Under the pieces are notes generated by a model. The model searched no databases and had not been told where the DNA came from. It saw nothing but the letters and a program-made list of their open reading frames with translations. Below, one piece after another: positions 5,331-37,146 of a stretch of DNA of 40,539 bases. The stretch comes from a virus (taxonomy: Duplodnaviria > Heunggongvirae > Uroviricota > Caudoviricetes), in the IMG/VR virus record IMGVR_UViG_2541047802_000008. One strand, 5' to 3'. A program made the position numbers and the translations under genes. How positions within the stretch are numbered: the first letter of the stretch is position 1; the number at the start of each line of letters is the position of its first letter.

Positions 5331-5915
5331 TTATTGTTTGCTTTTTTCGTTCTGGTTGATGACAAATTCAATGTAACTTTCGATCTTTGCTTTCTCGGTT
5401 TCGGGTAACAATGCGTAGCGTGAGCGGTCATAGTTGATAGTCGCAGGGTCGTGCGGGTGAATCAGTAGTTCATATCCGTGACGCCCGAATGCGGATGCAA
5501 CATTCTCCAGGGTGGAAATGGAAACGCTGACCTCATTGTTTAACAGGCGGCTGATTGTCACCTGGGCGACGCCGGATGCGCGGTGAAGTTTTCCCTGTGT
5601 TGAAAGGTCGCGGCTTTCGCTCATCCAGCGTTCCAGGTTGTGAGCCGCCAGCTGACCAATGTCGCTTGGGCCGACAGGCTGAAAACCTTCCTGAGAAAGC
5701 GAGCGATCGATATCAAGCCAGTTACGGGGTTTATTGGCGGCAGCTTCAATTTTTCGCGCAACCTGGTCGCCGATAACCTTCTTGCCAAGAGCCCAGCGGT
5801 TTACCAGATTTGCCTGAGTTCCAAGTTTTTCTGCCATCCGCGTCTGAACACCATTGAATTCACGGTCGATCAAGTCGTTGAGATTTTGCCTGCGGACGTC
5901 CTGGATACTTTTCAT
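5331..5915 (-). CDS. Prophage repressor candidate: tandem HTH (two XRE/lambda-repressor-like DNA-binding domains), no peptidase S24 autocleavage domain
   Basis: 194 aa; N-terminal RRQNLNDLIDREFNGVQTRMAEKLGTQANLVNRW and a second HTH-like segment SGVAQVTISRLLNNEVSVSISTLENVASAFG; no LexA-like Ser/Lys cleavage module. Divergent from a Cro-like gene, flanked on both sides by operator-like dyads. No SD in the last 12 nt before the ATG (the nearest GAGG is about 15 nt upstream, too far). Confidence 0.7.
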   Translation of the reverse strand: MKSIQDVRRQNLNDLIDREFNGVQTRMAEKLGTQANLVNRWALGKKVIGDQVARKIEAAANKPRNWLDIDRSLSQEGFQPVGPSDIGQLAAHNLERWMSESRDLSTQGKLHRASGVAQVTISRLLNNEVSVSISTLENVASAFGRHGYELLIHPHDPATINYDRSRYALLPETEKAKIESYIEFVINQNEKSKQ

Positions 5916-6069: not shown

Positions 6070-6300
6070 ATGAGCGATAACGGACATTTCGATTTCAAAA
6101 AGCACTGGCTTGCACTTACTCCGGATGAGCGTGAAGCCTTCGCACAGGAAGCCGGAACGACGAGTCACTATATCCAGACTCACTTAACAGGTAAGCGAAA
6201 AATGCCAGGTAAAGTATTGATGAATGGGCTTTTTAAAGCCTGTAAAACAAGACAATGGCTGCGCTCAAAAGCAGAACTGGCATACTTCTTCTACTCATGA
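6070..6300 (+). CDS. Cro-like HTH regulator (76 aa)
   Basis: Divergent from the repressor gene; HTH-like segment FAQEAGTTSHYIQTHLTGKR; in the cro position of a lambdoid layout. Confidence 0.55.
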   Translation: MSDNGHFDFKKHWLALTPDEREAFAQEAGTTSHYIQTHLTGKRKMPGKVLMNGLFKACKTRQWLRSKAELAYFFYS

Positions 6301-13438: not shown

Positions 13439-13515
13439 TGGCGTGGCATGCAGGATTCGAACCTGCGACCAACCGCTTAGAAGGCGGTTGCTCTGTCCAA
13501 CTGAGCTAATGCCAC
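13439..13515 (-). tRNA. tRNA-Arg (anticodon UCU, reads AGA), phage-encoded, CCA encoded
   Basis: Reverse complement folds as a cloverleaf: acceptor GTGGCAT/ATGCCAC, D-arm GCTC...GAGC, anticodon stem ACCGC/GCGGT with loop CTTCTAA, T-arm GCAGG-TTCGAAT-CCTGC, discriminator G, CCA. Related to but distinct from host argU as recalled. Confidence 0.9.
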
Positions 13516-27482: not shown

Positions 27483-29957
27483 ATGAGACAGGAATGTATA
27501 CAAGCGGTTCAGCAGGCGGCGCAGCGCATGTTAACGGCGCGAGAAATACAGAACATTGAAGACCGCATTTATCGAAATATGCGCTCCATTGCTCGTGATG
27601 ACCCTATGTCGTGGCGACAACTTTCCGAATCAGAGCGGCTATATCGAGCAGCACAATTGGCATCTGAAGAATTACAGCGAGAAGCGGCATTAAAGAAACG
27701 TCGTGTGGCTCTAACTATAGCCGCGCGTCAGAGATTGGATAAATTTATCAATAGCTATCAAGGGGCTGATGGGAAACTTGGCGCTCTTAACCGTACTATA
27801 GCTTTTAATGCAGACGGTAAATCTAATTTCCTCTCTGTTGAATCCAGAACAAAAGCCACCCGTGATTATGCATTGAGTCAATTGCAGGAGGCATTCGAAG
27901 CAGTTGATCCTCGCTTTTTTGGTCTGTTTGAAGATGAAGCGGGCGTACGTGACCTGGTATATGAAATGCGGGGGCAAAATACTGGCAATGCTAAAGCAAG
28001 AAACGGTGCTAAGGCGTGGAGAGAAGTTACAGAGCTGCTGCGCCGCCGGTTTAATGATGCTGGTGGGGACATTGGCTATCTCGAAAACTGGGGGATCCCT
28101 CAACATCATTCTATGGAAAAGGTTGGGGCAGTATCAAAGGATAAGTGGGTTAGCGATGTTATAGGTAAGCTGGATCGCAAATATTATATCCGAGCCGATG
28201 GACAACTGATGAACGATGCCGAGTTGTCTTCATTTCTTGGAGAGGCTTATAACACGATCGCTACTGGTGGGCTGAATAAGCTTACTGATACCGGAATGCG
28301 AATTTCCGGCGCACGTGCTAACCGTGGTAATGCATCACGACAGATACATTTCAAAGATGCAGATTCCTATCTGCAATATCAGCAACTTTATGGCGATCGC
28401 TCTCTATGGGAAATCATGGTCGGTCACCTGGAAGGTATCAGTAAAGATATTGCACTGGTGGAAACATATGGCCCAAACCCCGATCATGTTTTCCGCTCTC
28501 TTCTTGATCAGGTGAAGGCAGAAACGGCAACAGCTAACCCGAGTAAAACCGGTAAAGTCGAGCGGCTGGCGAACAACACAGAGAATCTGTACAACTTTAT
28601 TTCCGGAAAGACACAGCCTGTAGCGAATCCGCACATCGCGCGATGGTCTGACAATATCCGCAACTGGCTGGTTGCCAGCAGACTCGGATCCGCGTTGCTG
28701 TCATCGTTCTCTGATCTTGGAACCATGTATCTGTCTGCGAAGGTTACCAACCTTCCAATAAACCAGTTATTCCGCAACCAGCTTGAAGCTATGGACCCAA
28801 CGAACCGTACAGAACTTGCGCGGGCTCGCCGCGCTGGTCTGGCGATGGAATCTCTACTTGGCAGCGTTAACCGCTGGGCGATGGATAATATGGGGCCGTC
28901 AGTGTCTCGTTGGGCGGCAACGGCGGTAATGCGTGCCAGTGGGCTTACAGCATGGTCAGATGCGCACAAGCGCGCCTATGGCGTAACCATGATGGGAAGC
29001 CTGGGAGAAGTAGTGTCACGGACACCAGACCTTCGTAGCCTCGATGACTCTGATTTTCGTATCCTGAAAAGCAAAGGGATTACTGACACAGACTGGAGCG
29101 TATGGAAGCTGGCGAAACAGGAGGACTGGGGGAACGGTAATAATACGATGCTGACACCGGAAAGCATTATGCGTATCCCTGATTCAGCAGTTAAACATCT
29201 TGGTGAGCCTGAACGCGTGAAATTTGAGGCAATGCGTAAACTGCTCGGTGCCGTAACTGAAGAAGTTGATATGGCTGTTATTACACCGGGAGCACGTGAG
29301 CAACTGATAACCGGTTCTGGTATTCAGCGTGGAACATGGAAAGGTGAATTAACGAGAAGTGTTTTCCTGTTTAAATCGTTCCCTATCTCGGTTGTTATGC
29401 GTCACTGGTCACGCGCTATGGGTATGCCGTCTGCTGGTGGGCGTGCGGCATATATTGCGACGTTTATTGCCAGTACGACCATTCTTGGCGCTTTGTCGCA
29501 GCAACTTAACGACCTTGCGTCTGGTCGTAATCCTCGAGAGATGACAGGAGAAGATGCCGCAAAATTCTGGCTTGGTGCTCTACTGAAAGGTGGTGGTCTT
29601 GGCCTTTACGGTGACTTTTTATTGTCAGATCACACTAGGTACGGAAGCGGCGCGCTGGCGTCGATGCTTGGCCCGGTAGCTGGTCTGGTTGATGACGTAG
29701 TGAAGATTGCTCAGGGCATACCGTTAAATGCTGTGGAAGGGAAGAGTGAGCAGACTGGTGGTGATCTGGTGAAGCTGGGGAAAGGTTTGATGCCTGGTGC
29801 GAATCTCTGGTACTTGAAGGCGGCTCTCGATCACATGATCTTTAACCAGATGCAGGAGTATTTTTCACCAGGCTATTTGCGTAAAATGGAGCAACGTTCG
29901 AAGAAAGAGTTTAACCAGACATACTGGTGGCGACCACAGGATGTCACTCCGCAATAA
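27483..29957 (+). CDS. Internal virion / DNA-ejection protein (824 aa)
   Basis: Large ORF completing the podovirus core-protein trio before the accessory island. Confidence 0.55.
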   Translation: MRQECIQAVQQAAQRMLTAREIQNIEDRIYRNMRSIARDDPMSWRQLSESERLYRAAQLASEELQREAALKKRRVALTIAARQRLDKFINSYQGADGKLGALNRTIAFNADGKSNFLSVESRTKATRDYALSQLQEAFEAVDPRFFGLFEDEAGVRDLVYEMRGQNTGNAKARNGAKAWREVTELLRRRFNDAGGDIGYLENWGIPQHHSMEKVGAVSKDKWVSDVIGKLDRKYYIRADGQLMNDAELSSFLGEAYNTIATGGLNKLTDTGMRISGARANRGNASRQIHFKDADSYLQYQQLYGDRSLWEIMVGHLEGISKDIALVETYGPNPDHVFRSLLDQVKAETATANPSKTGKVERLANNTENLYNFISGKTQPVANPHIARWSDNIRNWLVASRLGSALLSSFSDLGTMYLSAKVTNLPINQLFRNQLEAMDPTNRTELARARRAGLAMESLLGSVNRWAMDNMGPSVSRWAATAVMRASGLTAWSDAHKRAYGVTMMGSLGEVVSRTPDLRSLDDSDFRILKSKGITDTDWSVWKLAKQEDWGNGNNTMLTPESIMRIPDSAVKHLGEPERVKFEAMRKLLGAVTEEVDMAVITPGAREQLITGSGIQRGTWKGELTRSVFLFKSFPISVVMRHWSRAMGMPSAGGRAAYIATFIASTTILGALSQQLNDLASGRNPREMTGEDAAKFWLGALLKGGGLGLYGDFLLSDHTRYGSGALASMLGPVAGLVDDVVKIAQGIPLNAVEGKSEQTGGDLVKLGKGLMPGANLWYLKAALDHMIFNQMQEYFSPGYLRKMEQRSKKEFNQTYWWRPQDVTPQ

Positions 29958-30091: not shown

Positions 30092-30176
30092 TATTCGGAA
30101 TTGTATTGTTCGGAAGAATAATAAAATAACTAGTTAATTTGTGGATTGGTGCTGTTTTTCCATGATAGGGGTAATT

Positions 30177-30557
30177 ATGAGAAAAGTATTTTTGATTTTT
30201 GGATTTATGCTTCTCGTTGGATGCCAGTCAGCTGCACAGTTTGAAAGAAATATGCTTACGTGGCGCGGGCAGAGTATAGACGCAATGGTTCAGCAGTGGG
30301 GGTATCCTCAGGGAGAGCTTACATCTCCAGATGGAAACAGAGTGTATGTTTACTCAAGCTCTGGTAGTTATAACGTACCACAAACCACAACGTATAATAC
30401 TACGTCTAATCTAATTGGTAATACTATATATTCAAACACATACGCAACAACTGATGGCGGTTATACACTCCATTTCAGTTGCTCTGTTTACGTTGAGTTT
30501 GGTGCTGATAAGATTATTAAAAATGTTACATGGCGCGGTAATAATTGCGTTGCGTGA
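30177..30557 (+). CDS. Lipoprotein (126 aa) with signal peptide and lipobox LVGC; accessory gene
   Basis: MRKVFLIFGFMLLVGCQS signal/lipobox; Thr/Ser/Tyr-rich mature region; AT-rich surroundings. Confidence 0.6.
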   Translation: MRKVFLIFGFMLLVGCQSAAQFERNMLTWRGQSIDAMVQQWGYPQGELTSPDGNRVYVYSSSGSYNVPQTTTYNTTSNLIGNTIYSNTYATTDGGYTLHFSCSVYVEFGADKIIKNVTWRGNNCVA

Positions 30558-30565: not shown

Positions 30566-30590
30566 AGGCCGCTTTCGCGGCCTTGTTTTT
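30566..30590 (+). terminator. Rho-independent terminator after the lipoprotein gene
   Basis: AGGCCGC-TTT-CGCGGCCT hairpin followed by TGTTTTT. Confidence 0.6.
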
Positions 30591-30750
30591 AACGAATGCC
30601 ACCGCCACCCGGGCGGGAATCCGCAGAACGCCCACCGCAGCGTGAGCCGTCAGCAGCAGTGTCGCTGTCGTGCTGACAACGACCGGCAAAGGCCTGAGTT
30701 GAAGCTACCAGAGACAACAAAACGAACAGTGCAGCAAATGCTTTTTTCAT
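30589..30750 (-). CDS. Small secreted protein candidate (53 aa) with signal peptide
   Basis: MKKAFAALFVLLSLVASTQAFA signal peptide followed by a short Cys-containing Gly/Arg-rich region; weak RBS. Confidence 0.3.
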   Translation of the reverse strand: MKKAFAALFVLLSLVASTQAFAGRCQHDSDTAADGSRCGGRSADSRPGGGGIR

Positions 30751-30821
30751 TGTGAAATTTCCATCTATAAGCCACCTCAATGTGGCGTCAATGAGTGTAG
30801 CACTGACTTTTGTTTCGTCCA

Positions 30822-30844
30822 CAAAAAAGCCCGCAGCGCGGGCT
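30822..30844 (-). terminator. Rho-independent terminator ending the minus-strand accessory operon
   Basis: Plus-strand AAAAAA-GCCCGCAGCGCGGGC; on the minus strand the hairpin is followed by U6, immediately 3' of the 30844 stop. Confidence 0.55.
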
Positions 30845-31392
30845 TACTTTTCTTCAGGTTTGTTGTCTTCAGATTTCTTCTTGATGCTTGGTTTTTGTCT
30901 AAGAACGAAAATACCAGCCACTGCAACAACTGTACCGATCACTGTGCCAGCTAGAACTTCATGGCCTGTTAAACCTAATAATGTTGCACAAGCTACTGTA
31001 AAAATAGTTGCACTCAGGCCAAACCACTGCCCACGTTTATCTCTATTAATAGCCCCGTCAAGTGCCTTTTCCTCCATTTTCTGGCGGTGAGCAAACTCCT
31101 TCTCCGTCAGCTGGAAGATGCGTTCGGGGGCATCAGGTAAAATATCCTGATACCCGCGAAGCAGATAGGGGGGAGGAAGCGGACCCTGAAACGCATGGTG
31201 AGCGACAACTATCTCCTGAATTTCAGGGCGATCAAGAACTCTTGTGAAGGCATCTGGGTGTTGAATGATCTCGTTACTTAGCCCTTCCTCAACTTCCTCG
31301 AACTCAGTTTCTTCGTTATCACTTGGTTGCCCAATAGATTTTTGCATATTTGTCGAAGGACATTCCTTTAGCTTCTGGTTTTCCTCTTGCAT
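30844..31392 (-). CDS. Membrane protein (182 aa) with acidic N-terminal region and two C-terminal TM helices (DUF2335-like)
   Basis: C-terminal hydrophobic segments WFGLSATIFTVACATLLGL and LAGTVIGTVVAVAGIFVL followed by a Lys-rich tail; RGQ motif before the first TM. Start at 31392 overlaps the upstream gene by 74 nt; a later start at 31347 is possible. Confidence 0.5.
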   Translation of the reverse strand: MQEENQKLKECPSTNMQKSIGQPSDNEETEFEEVEEGLSNEIIQHPDAFTRVLDRPEIQEIVVAHHAFQGPLPPPYLLRGYQDILPDAPERIFQLTEKEFAHRQKMEEKALDGAINRDKRGQWFGLSATIFTVACATLLGLTGHEVLAGTVIGTVVAVAGIFVLRQKPSIKKKSEDNKPEEK

Positions 31393-31645
31393 TTGAGTTT
31401 TTCCCTGTCACTATTGCCCATTTTCCGCCAGCAGGCGCTGCAATTTTTTTTCCGTTCTTTACTATATATTCAGCATAAACACGATTTTCTGACCGTCTGA
31501 GATCGTCTCCGACCATATTCATGTCTCTTGATATAACTTTGACGACAGAGTCTCGGTTTAAAGCCTTGGCATAGTTGGAGCCAGGAACGATACCCAAAGG
31601 GGTGCCAGACTCTATAGCCAGCTCCTTGACATATCTTCTGCTCAT
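31319..31645 (-). CDS. Hypothetical protein (108 aa)
   Basis: ATG at 31645 with GAGG 6 nt upstream, 22 nt downstream of an operator-like dyad; basic protein, function unknown. Confidence 0.45.
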   Translation of the reverse strand: MSRRYVKELAIESGTPLGIVPGSNYAKALNRDSVVKVISRDMNMVGDDLRRSENRVYAEYIVKNGKKIAAPAGGKWAIVTGKNSNARGKPEAKGMSFDKYAKIYWATK

Positions 31646-31666
31646 ATGAACCTCAACCAATCGACT

Positions 31667-31681
31667 TTACCAATCGGGTAA
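31667..31681. promoter_or_regulatory. Operator-like dyad TTACC-AATCG-GGTAA
   Basis: Perfect dyad between the Ant-like gene and the 31645 gene. Confidence 0.5.
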
Positions 31682-31766
31682 TTTTAAACATGAGTATAAT
31701 GCTTTTAACTGCAACGAGTGTAAACAATTATTGATAATTGTAGGCACATCCATGTGCCGCCGCTCG

Positions 31767-32423
31767 TCAGAAGAACCCTGCTTTGTCGTTGATATACTCC
31801 GCGTGGGTCTGGATATCACGCAGGCATTTGCTCACACCGACGATGTAGCAGAACATGGTGGTCAGCTCCGCCGCCGCGCCCGATACGTCGTGCCCGTCGT
31901 CCTGTAACTGGTTCAGCAGATTCATCAGCAGTGAGTGCTCCGTCAGGCCGAGAACACCAGACGGCGAGTGAATCAAACTGCGGTAGCCGGGCTTCAGCGG
32001 GGCGCTGTATTCTTTTTTGTCTTCCAGCTTGATCGCCTCCATAATGGCGGGCATGAAGCCTGACAAGACCTTCTCCACTTTTGTTTCTTGTTGTCTTAAA
32101 CGTTTCTCGCATTCAATGAAGTAGCGTCGCACCTGGCGACCTTTTTCGTTACGCTCGACCATCGCCAGCTCTTTGGCTGTATCAAGGGTGAGGTGGTACT
32201 CTTTGCGGTTGTGGCCGCCTCTACCAGATGTTTGCTTTCCCAAATTGGAAAGCAAAATATAGTCTTGATTTTCAATGAATTCGTATTCTGATATGCGATT
32301 TGTAATCCATGCTGCAAACACCTTTTTAACACCTAAAAAAGCGTGCAGATCGCGGGCATTACAAAGTAGGGCTGTTTCGTTAGATATAGTGCCGTTGAAT
32401 ACGGGGATGAGTTGAGCGTTCAT
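31767..32423 (-). CDS. Ant-like antirepressor candidate (218 aa): N-terminal AntA-like domain plus C-terminal domain shared with the 33574..33831 protein
   Basis: N-terminal [33 protein letters not shown] resembles the AntA/AntB antirepressor N-domain pattern (from memory). The C-terminal ~70 aa align with the 85-aa protein at about 45% identity (IH(S/T)P.GV..L.E.S.LM.LL..L..DG..V.G..AELT...Y......DLQTH). Confidence 0.6.
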
Positions 32424-32580
32424 GATGGCGTCTCCACTTAGCGAATTACATCACCACCGCTGAGACCAATCAGATGGTGGTGAACTGAACGGAGTTGGTC
32501 TTACCGGCCTAAGTGGTACCGGCGTCCTTTCGGACCCCCATTCAGCCCACCATAATTCTGGCATGACTGTGCTATACGCA

Positions 32581-32665
32581 TAAAAAAACCACGTCTGGCG
32601 TGGTATGCGCCACTTAGTAATCCGGGAGACCAATCCCGGCACTGGATTTTGCCAGTGCCCGATTA
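32581..32665 (-). ncRNA. Candidate small RNA or attenuating leader upstream of the Ant-like gene
   Basis: Minus-strand unit: candidate promoter near 32660-32700 (TTTACA-N18-TAGTAA on the minus strand, overlapped by an operator dyad), two adjacent hairpins (32640..32657 and 32622..32639) and an intrinsic terminator (CCACG-CCAGA-CGTGG plus U7, plus-strand 32582..32603). No convincing ORF. Confidence 0.3.
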
Positions 32666-32822: not shown

Positions 32823-33551
32823 ATGGAAGTTTTCTGGATAGTTGTTGGTGTGGTTGCGGTGATTATTTACGTTATCAACCAGAACAAGACTAAGATCTCT
32901 GATCGTACGGTCGTTAATCATAACAAAACGATAAAGACCGAAGATGGGGAGATAACGATTAATCGTACACAGGTGATAGAACACACCTCTACTCAGTTTC
33001 AAAAAACTGGAGGTAATGCGCCTAATATTTCCGCACCTCCTGCTTATGATAGTGCGGTAATCCAGACATATTATAAACAGCAGGAGTTAGCAAAAGAGAG
33101 GCAACTGATTCAGCCAAAGCCGTTTACAGCTGAGCTTCCACCTGGAGTGTCAACGCGTCCGGCATATCATGGAAGATTCCCTGGTGATGACATATCGTCT
33201 CAGTCATCTAAAAAAGCACCTCAGGCAGTATCAGAGCCAGCAAGAATACCTTCTGTATCGCCGCCAAAAGAAGAATCAGCTAACAGAGTTTCAAGTGGTA
33301 GCAAGCAGTGCTTGCGATGCAGAATAAACCTACCATATGAAAAATTCAGGAAATCGTCAAAAAATCCAGATGGATTGACTAAGTGGTGTGCAAGGTGTCT
33401 CGATGGCCCAAAGAATACACGCCATATGAAGTGGTGCCCAATTTGTAATGTCCGCAGAAAACGAACAAGCTTTTACCCTAATAATCAAAATGCGGATGGC
33501 TTAATGGCATGGTGCAAAACGTGCTGGGACGAGCACAAAGCGAAACGATAG
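32823..33551 (+). CDS. Membrane-anchored protein (242 aa): N-terminal TM helix, low-complexity linker, two tandem Cys4 zinc-ribbon repeats
   Basis: TM helix FWIVVGVVAVIIYVI; C-terminal repeats C-LRC-x22-WC-ARC and C-PIC-x24-WC-KTC, each with DGL before WC; GAGG SD. Confidence 0.6.
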   Translation: MEVFWIVVGVVAVIIYVINQNKTKISDRTVVNHNKTIKTEDGEITINRTQVIEHTSTQFQKTGGNAPNISAPPAYDSAVIQTYYKQQELAKERQLIQPKPFTAELPPGVSTRPAYHGRFPGDDISSQSSKKAPQAVSEPARIPSVSPPKEESANRVSSGSKQCLRCRINLPYEKFRKSSKNPDGLTKWCARCLDGPKNTRHMKWCPICNVRRKRTSFYPNNQNADGLMAWCKTCWDEHKAKR

Positions 33552-33575
33552 GCCGCTCTTGCGGCCTTTAAATTT
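33551..33575 (+). terminator. Rho-independent terminator after the zinc-ribbon protein gene
   Basis: GGCCGC-TCTT-GCGGCC hairpin followed by TTTAAATTT. Confidence 0.5.
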
Positions 33576-33831
33576 ACCGGGTTTGTTTTCGTAATTGTTC
33601 GGCACAATAGTCGAGATGTGTTTGCAGATCCTGCATAGACATCTGTGAGCTGGTGACGTAGTTAATCAGTGCAGTCAGTTCGGCAAGTGGGCCATCGACA
33701 TTAAATCCATCCTTATCGAGATCCCGGAGTAATTTCATCAAGTGCGATCCCTCCACCAGTGACCTGACGCCTCCCGGCGTGTGAATCCTTTCGGTAAATC
33801 CGTCTTCCAGTGGATAGTGATACTGCTGCAT
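33574..33831 (-). CDS. LexA-controlled small protein (85 aa), paralogue of the Ant-like C-terminal domain; candidate SOS-inducible antirepressor or modulator
   Basis: ATG at 33831 with GGAGAAG SD; a near-consensus LexA box lies 22 nt upstream. The ORF-track start at 33954 would run through the LexA box and operator and is rejected. Confidence 0.6.
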   Translation of the reverse strand: MQQYHYPLEDGFTERIHTPGGVRSLVEGSHLMKLLRDLDKDGFNVDGPLAELTALINYVTSSQMSMQDLQTHLDYCAEQLRKQTR

Positions 33832-33852
33832 CTTATCTTCTCCATGCAATAA

Positions 33853-33868
33853 CTGTATATTTATACAG
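33853..33868. promoter_or_regulatory. LexA (SOS) box CTGTATATTTATACAG
   Basis: With flanks AACTGTATATTTATACAGTA it matches the enterobacterial LexA consensus TACTGTATATATATACAGTA at 18 of 20 positions; a TATAAA -10-like element lies inside the box on the coding (minus) strand. Confidence 0.75.
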
Positions 33869-33907
33869 TAGCAAATAATTTGTTTGCTATCCAGCACGTT
33901 TTGCAAA

Positions 33908-33922
33908 TTACCCGAAAGGTAA
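33908..33922. promoter_or_regulatory. Operator-like dyad TTACC-CGAAA-GGTAA
   Basis: Perfect dyad upstream of the LexA-box promoter, between it and the tailspike gene. Confidence 0.5.
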
Positions 33923-34026
33923 TATCTATTGGTATTTATAGTCTTTTTATCCATATATGGTTTTTCAGGTAATAGAATAACCAGATATGCGGCGCAACGG
34001 GTGCTGCGACTATCTGGAGATTTAAC

Positions 34027-37000
34027 ATGACGGTCTCAACCGAAGTTGACCACAACGAATACACCGGTAACGGCGTTACGACATCGTTTCCGTATACTTT
34101 TCGAATTTTCAGAAAATCAGACCTGGTTGTTCAGGTGTCTGACCTGAACGGAAACGTAACAGAATTGGTTCTGGATACCGGTTATACGGTAACTGGGGCG
34201 GGCACTTATAGTGGCGGTTCTGTGGTTCTTCCGTCTCCGCTTGCTACTGGATGGCGAATTACGATAGATCGTGTGCTTGATGTAGTGCAGGAGACAGACC
34301 TTCGCAATCAGGGAAAATTTTTCCCCGAAGTGCATGAAGATGCCTTTGACTACCTGACGATGCTGATCCAGCAATGTTTTGGGTGGTTCAGACGTGCATT
34401 GATGAAACCATCTTTGCTTGCAAAATATTACGATGCAAAGCAAAACAAAATTTCTAACCTTGCAGATCCATCATTTGAGCAGGACGCTGTAAATAATCGC
34501 TCAATGCGTAATTATGTCGATGCTGCAATCGCCGGGGTTGTTGGTGGTTTTGGTTGGTTTATTCAGTATGGTTCTGGGGCAGTATACCGAACGTTCCAGG
34601 ATAAGATGCGTGATGCTATTAGCCCCAAAGATTTTGGAGCTGTTGGTGATGGTATAAATGACGATTCCACTGCAATAAGCGCGTGCCTTGAAGCCTCATC
34701 TCCAGGTTATAAAATTGACGGATTAGGGCTTACTTTTAAAGTATCAACTCTTCCGGATGTCAGCCGATTTAAAAATGCTCGTTTTTTATTTGAGAGAATA
34801 CCGGGTCAGCCTCTTTTTTATGCTTCTGAAGATTTTATCCAGGGAGAGTTATTTAAAATTACAGATACACCGTGGTACAACGCCTGGACGCAGGATAAAA
34901 CGTTTGTATATGACAATGTCATCTATGCGCCTTTTATGGCTGGAGACCGCCATGGTGTAAATAACCTCCATGTTGCATGGGTTCGCTCAGGAGATGACGG
35001 GAAGACCTGGACAACGCCGGAATGGCTTACAGATTTACATGAAAACTATCCCACAGTTAACTATCACTGCATGAGTATGGGGGTTGTCAGAAATCGCCTT
35101 TTTGCTGTAATTGAGACGCGGACCGTGAGCGGAAATAAACTGCAGGTTGCAGAGTTGTGGGATCGCCCAATGAGTCGCAGCCTTCGCGTTTATGGTGGTA
35201 TAACGAAAGCAGCAAATCAGCAAGTCGCTTATATTCGCATTACTGATCACGGATTATTTGCTGGTGATTTTGTCAACTTCTCAAACTCTGGTGTTACAGG
35301 TGTTACCGGGAATATGACGGTGACTACTGTTATTGATAAAAATACTTTTACAGTTACGACGCAAAATACCCAGGATGTGGATCAGAATAACGAGGGTAGA
35401 TACTGGAGTTTTGGTACATCATTTCACTCGTCACCATGGAGAAAAACCAGTCTTGGAACTATTCCTTCTTTTGTTGACGGAAGCACTCCTGTTACTGAGA
35501 TTCACAGTTTTGCGACGATTAGCGATAACAGTTTTGCTGTTGGCTACCATAATGGTGATATTGGTCCACGCGAGCTTGGGATACTCTATTTCTCTGATGC
35601 TTTCGGTTCTCCTGGTAGCTTTGTTCGCAGACGCATACCTGCAGAATATGAGGCGAATGCATCTGAGCCATGTGTAAAATATTATGATGGCATTCTGTAT
35701 CTGACGACCAGGGGGACATTAAGTACTCAACCCGGTAGTTCATTGCACAGAAGCTCTGATTTAGGTACATCATGGAATTCTCTTCGCTTCCCAAATAATG
35801 TTCATCACTCAAACCTTCCTTTTGCCAAAGTTGGCGATGAGCTGATTATTTTTGGCAGTGAGCGCGCATTTGGTGAGTGGGAAGGAGGAGAACCTGATAA
35901 CCGTTATGCAGGAAACTATCCAAGAACATTTATGACCAGAGTTAACGTCAATGAGTGGAGTCTGGATAATGTAGAGTGGGTTAATGTTACTGATCAGATT
36001 TATCAGGGCGGAATAGTTAACTCTGCGGTTGGTGTTGGTTCAGTTTGTATCAAAGACAACTGGCTGTACTACATTTTCGGTGGGGAAGACTTTCTAAACC
36101 CATGGAGCATAGGGGATAACAACAGAAAATATCCTTATGTTCACGATGGTCACCCGGCTGATTTGTATTGTTTCAGGGTGAAAATTAAACAGGAAGAATT
36201 TGTTTCAAGGGATTTTGCCTACGGAGCCACTCCTAACAGAACGCTTCCTACTTTTATGTCGACGTCAGGCGTGAGGACGGTTCCTGTACCTGTTGATTTC
36301 ACAGATGATGTTGCCGTCCAGTCACTGACTGTCCATGCAGGTACATCAGGACAAGTTCGCGCGGAAGTCAAACTTGAGGGTAATTACGCCATTATTGCGA
36401 AGAAAGTACCGTCTGATGATGTTACCGCTCAGAGATTAATCGTTAGCGGCGGTGAAACAACGTCTTCAGCAGATGGTGCAATGATAACGTTGCATGGTTC
36501 CGGAAGCAGTACTCCACGTCGCGCGGTATATAACGCACTCGAACATCTTTTTGAGAACGGAGATGTTAAACCTTATCTTGATAATGTAAATGCTCTTGGT
36601 GGTCCGGGAAACAGGTTCTCGACAGTTTATCTTGGCTCCAATCCTGTGGTTACCAGTGACGGAACATTAAAGACAGAGCCGGTCTCTCCTGACGAAGCAT
36701 TGCTGGATGCCTGGGGTGACGTCAGGTATATCGCTTATAAATGGCTGAACGCTGTCGCTATAAAGGGGGAAGAAGGGGCGAGGATACATCATGGTGTAAT
36801 CGCGCAGCAACTTCGTGATGTTCTTATTTCTCACGGACTCATGGAAGAAGAAAGCACAACATGCCGCTATGCCTTTCTTTGCTATGACGATTATCCCGCA
36901 GTATATGATGACGTCATTACTGGCCAAAGGGAAATGCCGCTGACTGATAATGACGGGAGCATCATTGTTGATGAGGATGATAATCCAGTGATGGTAATGG

Positions 37001-37146
37001 AAGACATCATTGAGCGCGTTGAAATAACGCCAGCAGGATCTAGATGGGGGGTCAGACCTGATCTCTTATTCTATATCGAGGCAGCATGGCAGCGCAGAGA
37101 AATGGATAAGATAAAAGAGCGGATTCAGTCTCTGGAAGAACGTTAA
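34027..37146 (+). CDS. Tailspike protein: conserved N-terminal particle-binding domain, beta-helix (pectate-lyase-like) domain, C-terminal intramolecular chaperone (S74-like) domain
   Basis: 1039 aa; N-terminal EYTGNGVTTSFPYTF motif; KDFGAVGDGINDDSTAI is the typical beta-helix tailspike motif; C-terminal GARIHHGVIAQQLRDVL matches the autoproteolytic chaperone domain of endosialidase-type spikes. Confidence 0.85.
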   Translation: MTVSTEVDHNEYTGNGVTTSFPYTFRIFRKSDLVVQVSDLNGNVTELVLDTGYTVTGAGTYSGGSVVLPSPLATGWRITIDRVLDVVQETDLRNQGKFFPEVHEDAFDYLTMLIQQCFGWFRRALMKPSLLAKYYDAKQNKISNLADPSFEQDAVNNRSMRNYVDAAIAGVVGGFGWFIQYGSGAVYRTFQDKMRDAISPKDFGAVGDGINDDSTAISACLEASSPGYKIDGLGLTFKVSTLPDVSRFKNARFLFERIPGQPLFYASEDFIQGELFKITDTPWYNAWTQDKTFVYDNVIYAPFMAGDRHGVNNLHVAWVRSGDDGKTWTTPEWLTDLHENYPTVNYHCMSMGVVRNRLFAVIETRTVSGNKLQVAELWDRPMSRSLRVYGGITKAANQQVAYIRITDHGLFAGDFVNFSNSGVTGVTGNMTVTTVIDKNTFTVTTQNTQDVDQNNEGRYWSFGTSFHSSPWRKTSLGTIPSFVDGSTPVTEIHSFATISDNSFAVGYHNGDIGPRELGILYFSDAFGSPGSFVRRRIPAEYEANASEPCVKYYDGILYLTTRGTLSTQPGSSLHRSSDLGTSWNSLRFPNNVHHSNLPFAKVGDELIIFGSERAFGEWEGGEPDNRYAGNYPRTFMTRVNVNEWSLDNVEWVNVTDQIYQGGIVNSAVGVGSVCIKDNWLYYIFGGEDFLNPWSIGDNNRKYPYVHDGHPADLYCFRVKIKQEEFVSRDFAYGATPNRTLPTFMSTSGVRTVPVPVDFTDDVAVQSLTVHAGTSGQVRAEVKLEGNYAIIAKKVPSDDVTAQRLIVSGGETTSSADGAMITLHGSGSSTPRRAVYNALEHLFENGDVKPYLDNVNALGGPGNRFSTVYLGSNPVVTSDGTLKTEPVSPDEALLDAWGDVRYIAYKWLNAVAIKGEEGARIHHGVIAQQLRDVLISHGLMEEESTTCRYAFLCYDDYPAVYDDVITGQREMPLTDNDGSIIVDEDDNPVMVMEDIIERVEITPAGSRWGVRPDLLFYIEAAWQRREMDKIKERIQSLEER

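Follow-up and report, generated by a model that had tools for sequence, protein, structure and literature searches.

A mobile two-gene cassette pairing a DUF2335 membrane protein with a small basic partner in a temperate Escherichia coli podophage

The window analyzed here, the whole 40,539-nucleotide stretch of virus record IMGVR_UViG_2541047802_000008, carries on its minus strand a pair of open reading frames (ORFs) encoding a basic protein of 108 amino acids (aa) and a 182-aa membrane protein of the DUF2335 family. The comparison of homologous loci shows that the two ORFs form an obligately paired, overlapping two-gene cassette, putatively translationally coupled, and that this cassette is mobile, being found at accessory positions of temperate phages across many phyla and on phage-plasmids. 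The window (40.5 kb) corresponds approximately to a complete temperate E. coli podophage of the phiV10/epsilon15 type (Uetakevirus-like), and the region around the cassette displays 99.5-99.6% identity to Escherichia phages EC.W1-9 and vB_EcoP_ZX5. The cassette lies in an accessory region flanked by a large ejection-protein gene (27483-29957) and a tailspike gene (34027-37146), and its features are listed below.

31319-31645, minus strand: small partner gene, 108 aa, from ATG 31645 to TGA 31319 (phrog_10654)
30844-31392, minus strand: DUF2335 membrane protein gene, 182 aa, from ATG 31392 to TAA 30844 (PF10097; phrog_3996)
31319-31392, minus strand: gene overlap of 74 nt, DUF2335 being in the +1 frame relative to the small gene
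31681-31708, minus strand: predicted promoter-like site of the cassette (consensus scan), with -35 TTAAAA (31708-31703), a 16-nt spacer and -10 TAAAAT (31686-31681)
31724-31696, minus strand: second, overlapping promoter candidate, TTTACA-17-CATTAT
31681-31667: operator dyad TTACCCGATTGGTAA of the TTACC-N5-GGTAA type, fused to the -10-like TAAAAT
30827-30845, minus strand: intrinsic terminator, an 8-bp stem with 6 G-C pairs followed by the T-run TTTTTTGTGG; the stem overlaps the DUF2335 stop codon

This layout agrees with the initial annotation, which had described a basic 108-aa protein and a 182-aa protein with two transmembrane (TM) segments, overlapping in different frames by 74 nt, or by 29 nt with a later start, all of which was found at the coordinates it gave on the minus strand. 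The pair had also been placed downstream of an Ant-like gene and ahead of an intrinsic terminator, and both are present: the upstream product contains an AntA/AntB domain (E = 4e-26) and the 8-bp stem lies at 30845-30827.

By profile comparison, the 182-aa protein is a clear member of DUF2335 (PF10097; COG5346 'predicted membrane protein'; PHROG 3996). Its residues 73-122 matched the entire 50-position Pfam model with 57.2 bits against a cutoff of 25 (E = 1.6e-15), and phrog_3996, labeled 'membrane protein', was matched with E = 8e-60. A DUF2335 profile search had been named beforehand as a check and thus returned a real match, while the housekeeping or structural family matches that were to count against the initial annotation did not turn up in the profile searches. 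Three regions can be distinguished in the protein: an acidic N-terminal part (residues 1-69, charge -11), the DUF2335 core (residues 73-122; 31176-31027) and a two-TM hairpin (approximately residues 123-165; 31026-30898), in which hydropathy places the hydrophobic segments at about residues 123-141 and 144-165. The AlphaFold2 (AF2) model is all-helical, with a predicted local distance difference test (pLDDT) value of 62 overall and of 73-84 across most of residues 71-140; a long helix (88-141) leads from the conserved core into the first TM segment and is followed by another at 145-165. The TM pair is preceded by RDKRGQ and followed by RQKPSIKKK, flanks that suggest an N-in/C-in membrane hairpin with a cytoplasmic N-terminal domain. 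Both TM helices past the core are kept in an alignment of 39 diverse DUF2335 members and are rich in small residues. The family has an invariant GPLPPP...Y...P....RI...E.E..HR core, which the 182-aa protein shares, and its consensus reads (F/Y)SGPLPPPxxLxxYExxLPGAAERILxMAExxxxHR, a variable helical spacer, RGQxxGF, the two TM helices, FVxGR and a polar tail.

The small protein has a net charge of +11, a pI of 10.0 and no hydrophobic or TM segment, so that in the window its charge mirrors the -11 of the first 69 residues of DUF2335. It contains the motifs YVKELAIESGTPLGIVPGSNY (31633-31571) and DMNMVGDDLRRS (31525-31490) and ends with the C-terminal motif FDKYAKIYWATK (31357-31322). Its only family match was phrog_10654 (E = 9.5e-66), a PHROG of unknown function, and searches of Pfam, NCBIfam and PADLOC gave no match. 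Partners from other loci are typically about 65-110 aa long and basic, with a median pI of about 10 and a positive net charge in 52 of 60 pairs. They share an N-terminal motif, F/Y-x-x-G-x-G-S-x-L-D-I-x-P, which is followed 15-30 residues further on by D-W/M/F-x-x-V/I-G-x-D-L/M-R-x-A; those of enterobacteria have in addition a variable linker and a near-invariant C-terminal F-x-K-Y-A-K-L-Y-W-x-T-K coded within the overlap. When 44 diverse partners were compared to Pfam, no family was matched and none recurred even at E <= 1. On these profile and motif data, the small protein represents a previously undescribed family (beyond the PHROG of unknown function) of basic, presumably cytoplasmic proteins. 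The AF2 model of the 108-aa protein, built from 12 sequences, was unreliable (pLDDT 43), and for this reason no fold search was attempted with it.

The constancy of the pairing was established by a survey of loci fetched from species-representative genomes (14 loci, from Bacteroidota, Desulfobacterota, Planctomycetota, Latescibacterota, a CPR lineage, Actinomycetota, Alpha- and Gammaproteobacteria) and from viral contigs (80 loci). The six-frame translation of 128 loci yielded 16,943 stop-to-stop ORFs, which were searched with the DUF2335 hidden Markov model (HMM) and with an iterated HMM of the upstream ORFs. Seventy-four distinct DUF2335 genes were obtained, five of them without upstream sequence, and a partner-HMM match was located directly upstream in 63 of the remaining 69. 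Of the six genes without such a match, one is the second half of a frameshifted gene, one is separated from its partner by an insertion sequence (IS) element, three (Streptococcus prophages, L041 and L127) are preceded by a small ORF in which the motif is degenerate, and one (L119) has no candidate. Conversely, the partner matches among the 16,943 ORFs all adjoin DUF2335, save one located at a contig end and the IS case.

The same arrangement is observed at close and at large distances. Over 2,000 assembly blocks are indexed as containing exactly this 182-aa protein, and at all ten distinct E. coli prophage places examined it was preceded by the 108-aa gene with identical geometry, while the flanks varied (Bro-N, ORF6N or AntA upstream; differing tailspikes). 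The DUF2335 proteins of Klebsiella, Salmonella and Enterobacter are 78-82% identical to that of the window, and the apparent gaps of 400-500 nt that gene callers often left in front of these DUF2335 genes hide a homologue of the small protein, 45-51% identical and ending 77 nt inside DUF2335. A profile of the small protein gave only about a dozen matches among 1.84 billion representative proteins. The genomic context of two distant matches was looked up, and in each the partner lies directly before DUF2335 and overlaps it: one (P0049, E = 4e-11) is found in a lambdoid prophage, just past a Q-type antiterminator, and the other (P0054, E = 2e-5) in an Enterobacter phage-plasmid, 10 nt past a Rep3 initiator. 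An overlapping small ORF also precedes DUF2335 in Klebsiella phage RAH1 (where it is unannotated), Leptospira phage LE1 and Arthrobacter phage Gusanita, with the respective motifs SILDIAP…SDFRRIGGDFGRA, ILDL…QDWLVTGEDLREA and SDWNAVGNDLRVA. Among 5,426 complete E. coli genomes, 72 carry the cassette, in each case on the chromosome; plasmids seldom have it, and those that do are phage-plasmids. A 2791-aa repetitive protein (P0055), in which the partner profile matched five short repeated stretches, was treated as a false positive.

The small gene is uncalled or unannotated in many public records, among them L013 and L015-L022 (NCBI/Logan), L023 (phage BUCT711) and L030 (phage RAH1, 2278-2475).

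The overlap itself is a conserved property of the pair. Relative to its partner, DUF2335 occupies the +1 frame in 60 of 63 pairs, and likewise in 60 of 63 no choice of start codon would keep the overlap to 4 nt or less, the minimal overlaps ranging from 11 to 113 nt. The small ORF is preceded at 4 nt from its ATG by a Shine-Dalgarno (SD)-like GAGGT (31650-31654, minus strand), invariant in an alignment of six loci. The start of the membrane protein had been considered ambiguous, as the alternative ATG 31347 would shrink the overlap to 29 nt. Comparative data favor the 182-aa form: the ATG equivalent to 31392 is preceded at 6 nt by AGGAAGG in Enterobacter, Leclercia and Klebsiella loci, the second ATG position reads ACG in most homologues, and the homologous DUF2335 proteins, mostly of 179-183 aa, begin at the equivalent site with a variable N-terminal sequence. 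Within the overlap, the C-terminal FxKYAKLYWATK of the small ORF is near-invariant in its own frame, whereas the DUF2335 N-terminus read from identical DNA is variable. An RNA structure masking the DUF2335 start was considered and rejected, since no consensus pairs were found and z was -0.38; the gene junction showed no slippery motif either. Natural fusions of partner and DUF2335 were likewise rejected, with none among the 128 loci.

One database entry (P0004) fuses the small ORF to DUF2335 via the loss of one base within the overlap, and two others (P0005 and P0006) shift frame at the A8 homopolymer, which lies at 31444-31451 in the small gene. Such variants most likely reflect errors of sequencing or assembly, each in a single contig.

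The regulatory signals ahead of the cassette connect it to the rest of the phage. The initial annotation had recognized an operator dyad in front of the pair; the dyad is indeed present, but it is not specific to the cassette. A scan of the whole window for TTACC-N5-GGTAA with at most one mismatch located 14 copies, against 0.61 expected and a maximum of 3 across 100 shuffles. The copies, identified by their coordinates, are distributed as follows.

5971, 6019: in the interval that separates the CI-like repressor gene (5331-5915, minus strand; PHROG transcriptional regulator/repressor) from a divergently oriented cro-like ORF (6070-6300)
5197, 5259: immediately to the left of that repressor gene
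6356, 8295, 8357, 10669, 10687, 13838: elsewhere in the early and packaging regions
31667: cassette
32695: promoter of the antirepressor unit
32788: divergent promoter
33908: upstream of a 126-aa gene

The dyads precede most transcription units of the phage, and in most of them the first T of the dyad is at the same time the last base of a -10-like hexamer (GATAAT|TACC, TACTAT|TACC and, for the cassette, TAAAAT|TACC). Upon alignment of six related loci, this -10/dyad arrangement was found before the cassette with invariant arms and a variable 5-nt spacer; it is also present before a diverged cassette in lambdoid context and before the unrelated cassette of TL-2011b described below. In this phage lineage TTACC-N5-GGTAA probably serves as the immunity operator, the putative binding site of the repressor. 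Since the dyad is phage-wide and includes the repressor/cro region, the cassette is predicted to be off in the stable lysogen and on with the lytic program; it is probably silent in lysogens, which argues against a classical exclusion moron expressed by the lysogen.

An 18-bp perfect palindrome, ACAATTATCAATAATTGT (31724-31741), was considered as a second repeated operator and rejected, as it is unique in the window. It overlaps the -35 of the upstream promoter candidate and is partly conserved in an Enterobacter locus (L020). Adjoining it, directly past the Ant stop codon, is a GGCACATGGATGTGCC hairpin.

The gene directly upstream of the cassette belongs to the antirepressor unit.

31767-32423, minus strand (32423-31767): AntA-type antirepressor gene (PF08346, AntA/AntB domain, E = 4e-26; phrog_377)

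No convincing terminator was found between this gene and the cassette, so read-through is possible and the cassette may also constitute the distal part of the antirepressor operon. Judged from these predicted signals, the cassette is the last unit of the antirepressor region, with its own predicted promoter. A comparable situation is known in P1, where icd and kilA, accessory host-acting genes, ride in the antirepressor operon, and the cassette may by analogy be riding at the end of such an operon. The C4 and isrK RNAs predicted in the antirepressor leader (see below) represent an RNA control of the type known from the P1 immI region (c4-icd-ant-kilA) and the isrK-orf45-anrP region of Gifsy-1 (PMC4825925). 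P1 Icd and KilA are nevertheless unrelated to the cassette proteins, and the cassette has a predicted promoter of its own in addition. Overexpression of the orthologous antirepressor (ORF4) of phage vB_EcoP_ZX5 pushed that phage toward lysis (PMC9782041).

Two Rfam matches at gathering level are located on the minus strand past the operator-bearing promoter of the Ant-like gene, within its leader: an isrK Hfq-binding small RNA (32582-32658, 67.7 bits) and a C4 antisense RNA (32473-32557, 61.2 bits).

The slot occupied by the cassette holds a different pair of genes in the sister phage TL-2011b, namely a 59-aa ORF (F365_gp45) that overlaps a YafO-family toxin gene (gp44) by 26 nt. The two cassettes share the slot, from the Bro/Ant gene to a 53-aa gene, as well as the small-ORF-first order, the overlap and an operator-bearing promoter, but their sequences are unrelated, and YafO is a ribosome-dependent mRNA interferase, not a membrane protein. 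The presence of an unrelated two-gene cassette indicates that the slot accepts interchangeable cassettes of this type, which fits a toxin-antitoxin (TA) or accessory-cassette reading of the locus.

Similarity to characterized systems was searched for at several levels. The initial annotation had suggested an accessory two-gene module of the toxin/immunity, abortive-infection or exclusion kind. The module is upheld as a co-conserved, overlapping and co-directional unit with its own predicted promoter and terminator; likeness to a known TA or defense family is not, as neither protein matched such families in PADLOC-DB v2.0.0 (E <= 0.01), NCBIfam or Pfam. Family-wide scans of 39 DUF2335 members and 44 partners for TA and defense families returned only single weak, unrelated matches, and no DNA-binding domain was detected in the 44 partners. 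For the 182-aa and 108-aa proteins, no relationship to any Pfam family except DUF2335 was detected. When four alignments were used to search the PDB by sequence and by profile, nothing significant and no fold match came out, a match to the colicin A hairpin (E = 2.5) being dismissed as compositional. A literature search returned no functional study of DUF2335, PF10097 or COG5346, and the one-line Pfam description of DUF2335 mentions neither the obligatory upstream partner nor the conserved overlap. A 'DUF2335 phospholipase / Tle1-like' domain quoted in papers on type VI and type IV secretion systems apparently results from confusion with DUF2235/Tle1.

Certain known systems resemble the cassette in layout. 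The membrane toxins SpoIISA (Bacillus subtilis) and CptA(YgfX) (E. coli) each have a cytoplasmic domain and are bound and neutralized by a small soluble partner, SpoIISB and CptB(SdhE) respectively; the small gene of CptAB precedes that of the toxin, which has two TM helices, and SpoIISB is largely disordered alone. The likeness of the cassette to these systems is restricted to layout, and its gene order is unlike that of spoIISA-spoIISB. The low-confidence model may hint that the 108-aa protein, as SpoIISB, is disordered alone. RexA/RexB of lambda combines a cytoplasmic partner with an inner-membrane effector that collapses the membrane potential; RexB has four TM helices, RexA has 279 aa, and the prophage expresses the two genes along with cI. 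RexAB is a two-component phage module as is the cassette, but it differs in size and architecture.

It is proposed, tentatively and at somewhat less than even confidence, that DUF2335 is a membrane-acting effector controlled by the small cytoplasmic partner, following a TA-like or sensor-effector logic. The prophage repressor would bind the operator and keep the cassette off in the lysogen, whereas infection or induction would switch it on along with the antirepressor. The small partner would be made first because of the overlap, and this basic protein could bind the acidic or conserved cytoplasmic part of DUF2335 in order to hold or gate its activity. DUF2335 itself may form oligomers in the inner membrane by means of its hairpin, which is rich in small residues, and disturb either the membrane or a process located there. 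The pay-off could be host killing, exclusion or an abortive-infection-type competition between mobile elements. In favor of this reading are the constancy of the pair, the opposite charges of the two proteins, the YafO cassette in the same slot of TL-2011b, and family neighbors enriched in integrase, Cro/CI, S24 repressor and Rha genes rather than in lysis genes. In the decay variants (P0007, a deletion; H35; L081, an IS insertion), moreover, it is DUF2335 that is lost or disrupted, the partner or its 5' part being retained, and among E. coli and other enterobacterial loci no intact DUF2335 with a deleted or disrupted partner was seen. A broader proposition is advanced with greater reserve and is judged rather unlikely, namely that the pairs make up a new cross-phylum class of translationally coupled two-protein membrane modules whose partner was missed by annotation, acting as a protein-neutralized toxin or as a defense/counter-defense device, here placed under the immunity repressor so that it would fire only on derepression or new infection.

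A number of observations weigh against an effector of this kind. No homology to a characterized toxin, antitoxin, defense, exclusion or holin protein was found in the searches described above, and the asymmetry of decay concerns very few cases. The binding of the partner to DUF2335 is an inference, as the model of the small protein is unreliable (pLDDT 43). A promoter repressed in lysogens makes an addiction or lysogen-defense role hard to reconcile in this phage. Lysogeny by ZX5, a near-identical phage, conferred no growth or stress phenotype (PMC9782041), an absence that, as does the effect of the ZX5 antirepressor, fits the repression of the cassette in lysogens. A control HMM built from far clades only matched the small protein of the window marginally (E = 0.12), so its membership of the cross-phylum family rests on intermediates and on synteny, overlap and frame; the same HMM matched Klebsiella orthologues (L014-type) with 3e-4 and the partner in lambdoid context (L024-type) with 1e-6, its sole match outside the existing partner set being the upstream ORF of L127.

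Four other explanations were weighed against the same body of evidence. That the pair does not consist of two genes, the product being a single protein made via programmed +1 frameshifting or the small ORF being there by chance, is barely credible. The recurrent +1 frame, the fused P0004 entry and the frequency with which gene callers skip the small ORF can be quoted in its favor, but the small ORF is conserved in its own frame within the overlap while the DUF2335 N-terminus varies, DUF2335 has its own conserved ATG and SD, fused ORFs are missing from the surveyed loci, the junction shows no conserved RNA structure or slippery motif, and P0004, P0005 and P0006 are single-contig indel variants. 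A classical type II TA system, in which the small protein would be a DNA-binding antitoxin autoregulating via the TTACC-N5-GGTAA dyad, is a slim prospect. The cassette does display the corresponding layout of two small, adjacent, co-directional and overlapping genes on mobile elements, with antitoxin-first order, a strongly basic small protein and a dyad at the promoter that recurs before the diverged cassette in lambdoid context. Homology to known families and a DNA-binding antitoxin autoregulating an operon-specific operator were not found: the dyad occurs at 13 other sites including the repressor/cro region and precedes the unrelated YafO cassette as well, none of the 44 partners has a recognizable DNA-binding domain, and the phage-plasmid pair located 10 nt past rep has no promoter of its own.

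Non-toxic superinfection exclusion, in which DUF2335 and its partner would block genome entry of related phages in the manner of P22 SieA or T4 Imm, appears unlikely, with points on both sides. SieA is a small inner-membrane protein of a short-tailed temperate phage, and its gene, expressed from the prophage, occupies an equivalent position between the ejection-protein genes and immI/tailspike, on the strand opposite to the late operon and with its own promoter; DUF2335 is likewise a small inner-membrane protein on temperate phages. Elsewhere its neighbors are often integrase and repressor genes, typical sites of exclusion genes: among 41 family clusters at 60% identity, with the four nearest neighbors considered, the commonest were integrase (6), Cro/CI-type helix-turn-helix proteins (at least 6), small terminase (4), Rha (2) and S24 repressor (2). 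SieA is however a single annotated gene, as are, to our knowledge, the known exclusion proteins of the SieA/Imm type, whereas the cassette has an obligatory partner and an immunity operator at its promoter that makes expression in the lysogen doubtful. Homology to SieA was rejected, as hhalign gave a probability of 2.2% with only a TM segment aligned, and the module is also found past a Q antiterminator and beside a plasmid rep gene. Still less likely is a function in the phage lytic cycle, either holin/antiholin-like lysis timing or host takeover of the 'kil' type, exerted with the antirepressor operon in the way of P1 icd/kilA. Such a function would agree with the operator-controlled promoter and the possible read-through from an antirepressor gene whose leader holds C4 and isrK RNAs (PMC4825925), with the N-in/C-in two-TM topology, which resembles that of class II holins, and with members located just past Q, past a lysin gene or near a GH104 lysozyme. 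Class II holins were taken as proteins of about 65-95 aa with two TM segments, encoded in a lysis cassette next to the endolysin; the DUF2335 protein has 182 aa with a 120-aa cytoplasmic domain, atypical for holins, and is encoded next to an antirepressor gene and a 53-aa secreted-peptide gene, neither of which serves in lysis. No lysis family is among the 25 most frequent neighbor families of the 41 clusters, and the cassette is on the strand opposite to the late genes, far from the presumed lysis cluster (ORFs near 37.4-39.3 kb). It is furthermore dispensable and swappable, as seen in TL-2011b and from its limited occurrence in complete E. coli genomes.

The remaining genes of the accessory region can be described briefly. 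Just past the cassette terminator is a 53/54-aa gene (30589-30753, minus strand; phrog_14503) whose Cys/Gly/Arg-rich product has a signal peptide. A copy 70% identical to it is also located behind the diverged cassette of the lambdoid prophage (L024, 3933-4094), and it trails the YafO cassette in TL-2011b as well, so it is probably an independent neighbor. Convergent with this gene is a lipoprotein-like ORF (30141-30557, plus strand; phrog_3716) with an LLVGC lipobox-like motif and its own terminator (30566-30583); in its place TL-2011b has an Arc-like repressor and Ant. On the other side of the antirepressor unit and transcribed divergently from it, a 242-aa protein (32823-33551, plus strand; phrog_6762) displays an N-terminal hydrophobic segment and C-terminal Cys-rich repeats weakly similar to endonuclease VII / Lar-like zinc modules. 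The 126-aa gene (33574-33954, minus strand), likewise behind an operator-bearing promoter, encodes a C-terminal domain (phrog_450 / phrog_15539) in common with the C-terminus of the Ant-like protein. A tRNA-Arg(tct) gene is located at 13439-13515 on the minus strand.

The cassette is regarded as an accessory module of mobile elements that combines two genes of uncharacterized families, and as being of moderate interest as a well-defined and testable candidate. Several corrections to existing annotation follow from the analysis: the missing small gene, the true start of DUF2335 and the mix-up of DUF2335 and DUF2235 in the literature. DUF2335 is widespread, and with a near-constant, overlapping and often unannotated small partner, a hitherto anonymous membrane protein becomes part of a defined two-component system that is open to experiment. 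If the pair turns out to act as a membrane toxin under the control of a protein, or to serve in exclusion or abortive infection, the conflict systems of mobile elements would gain a new family, and the phage would illustrate how such a system can be connected to its immunity operator.

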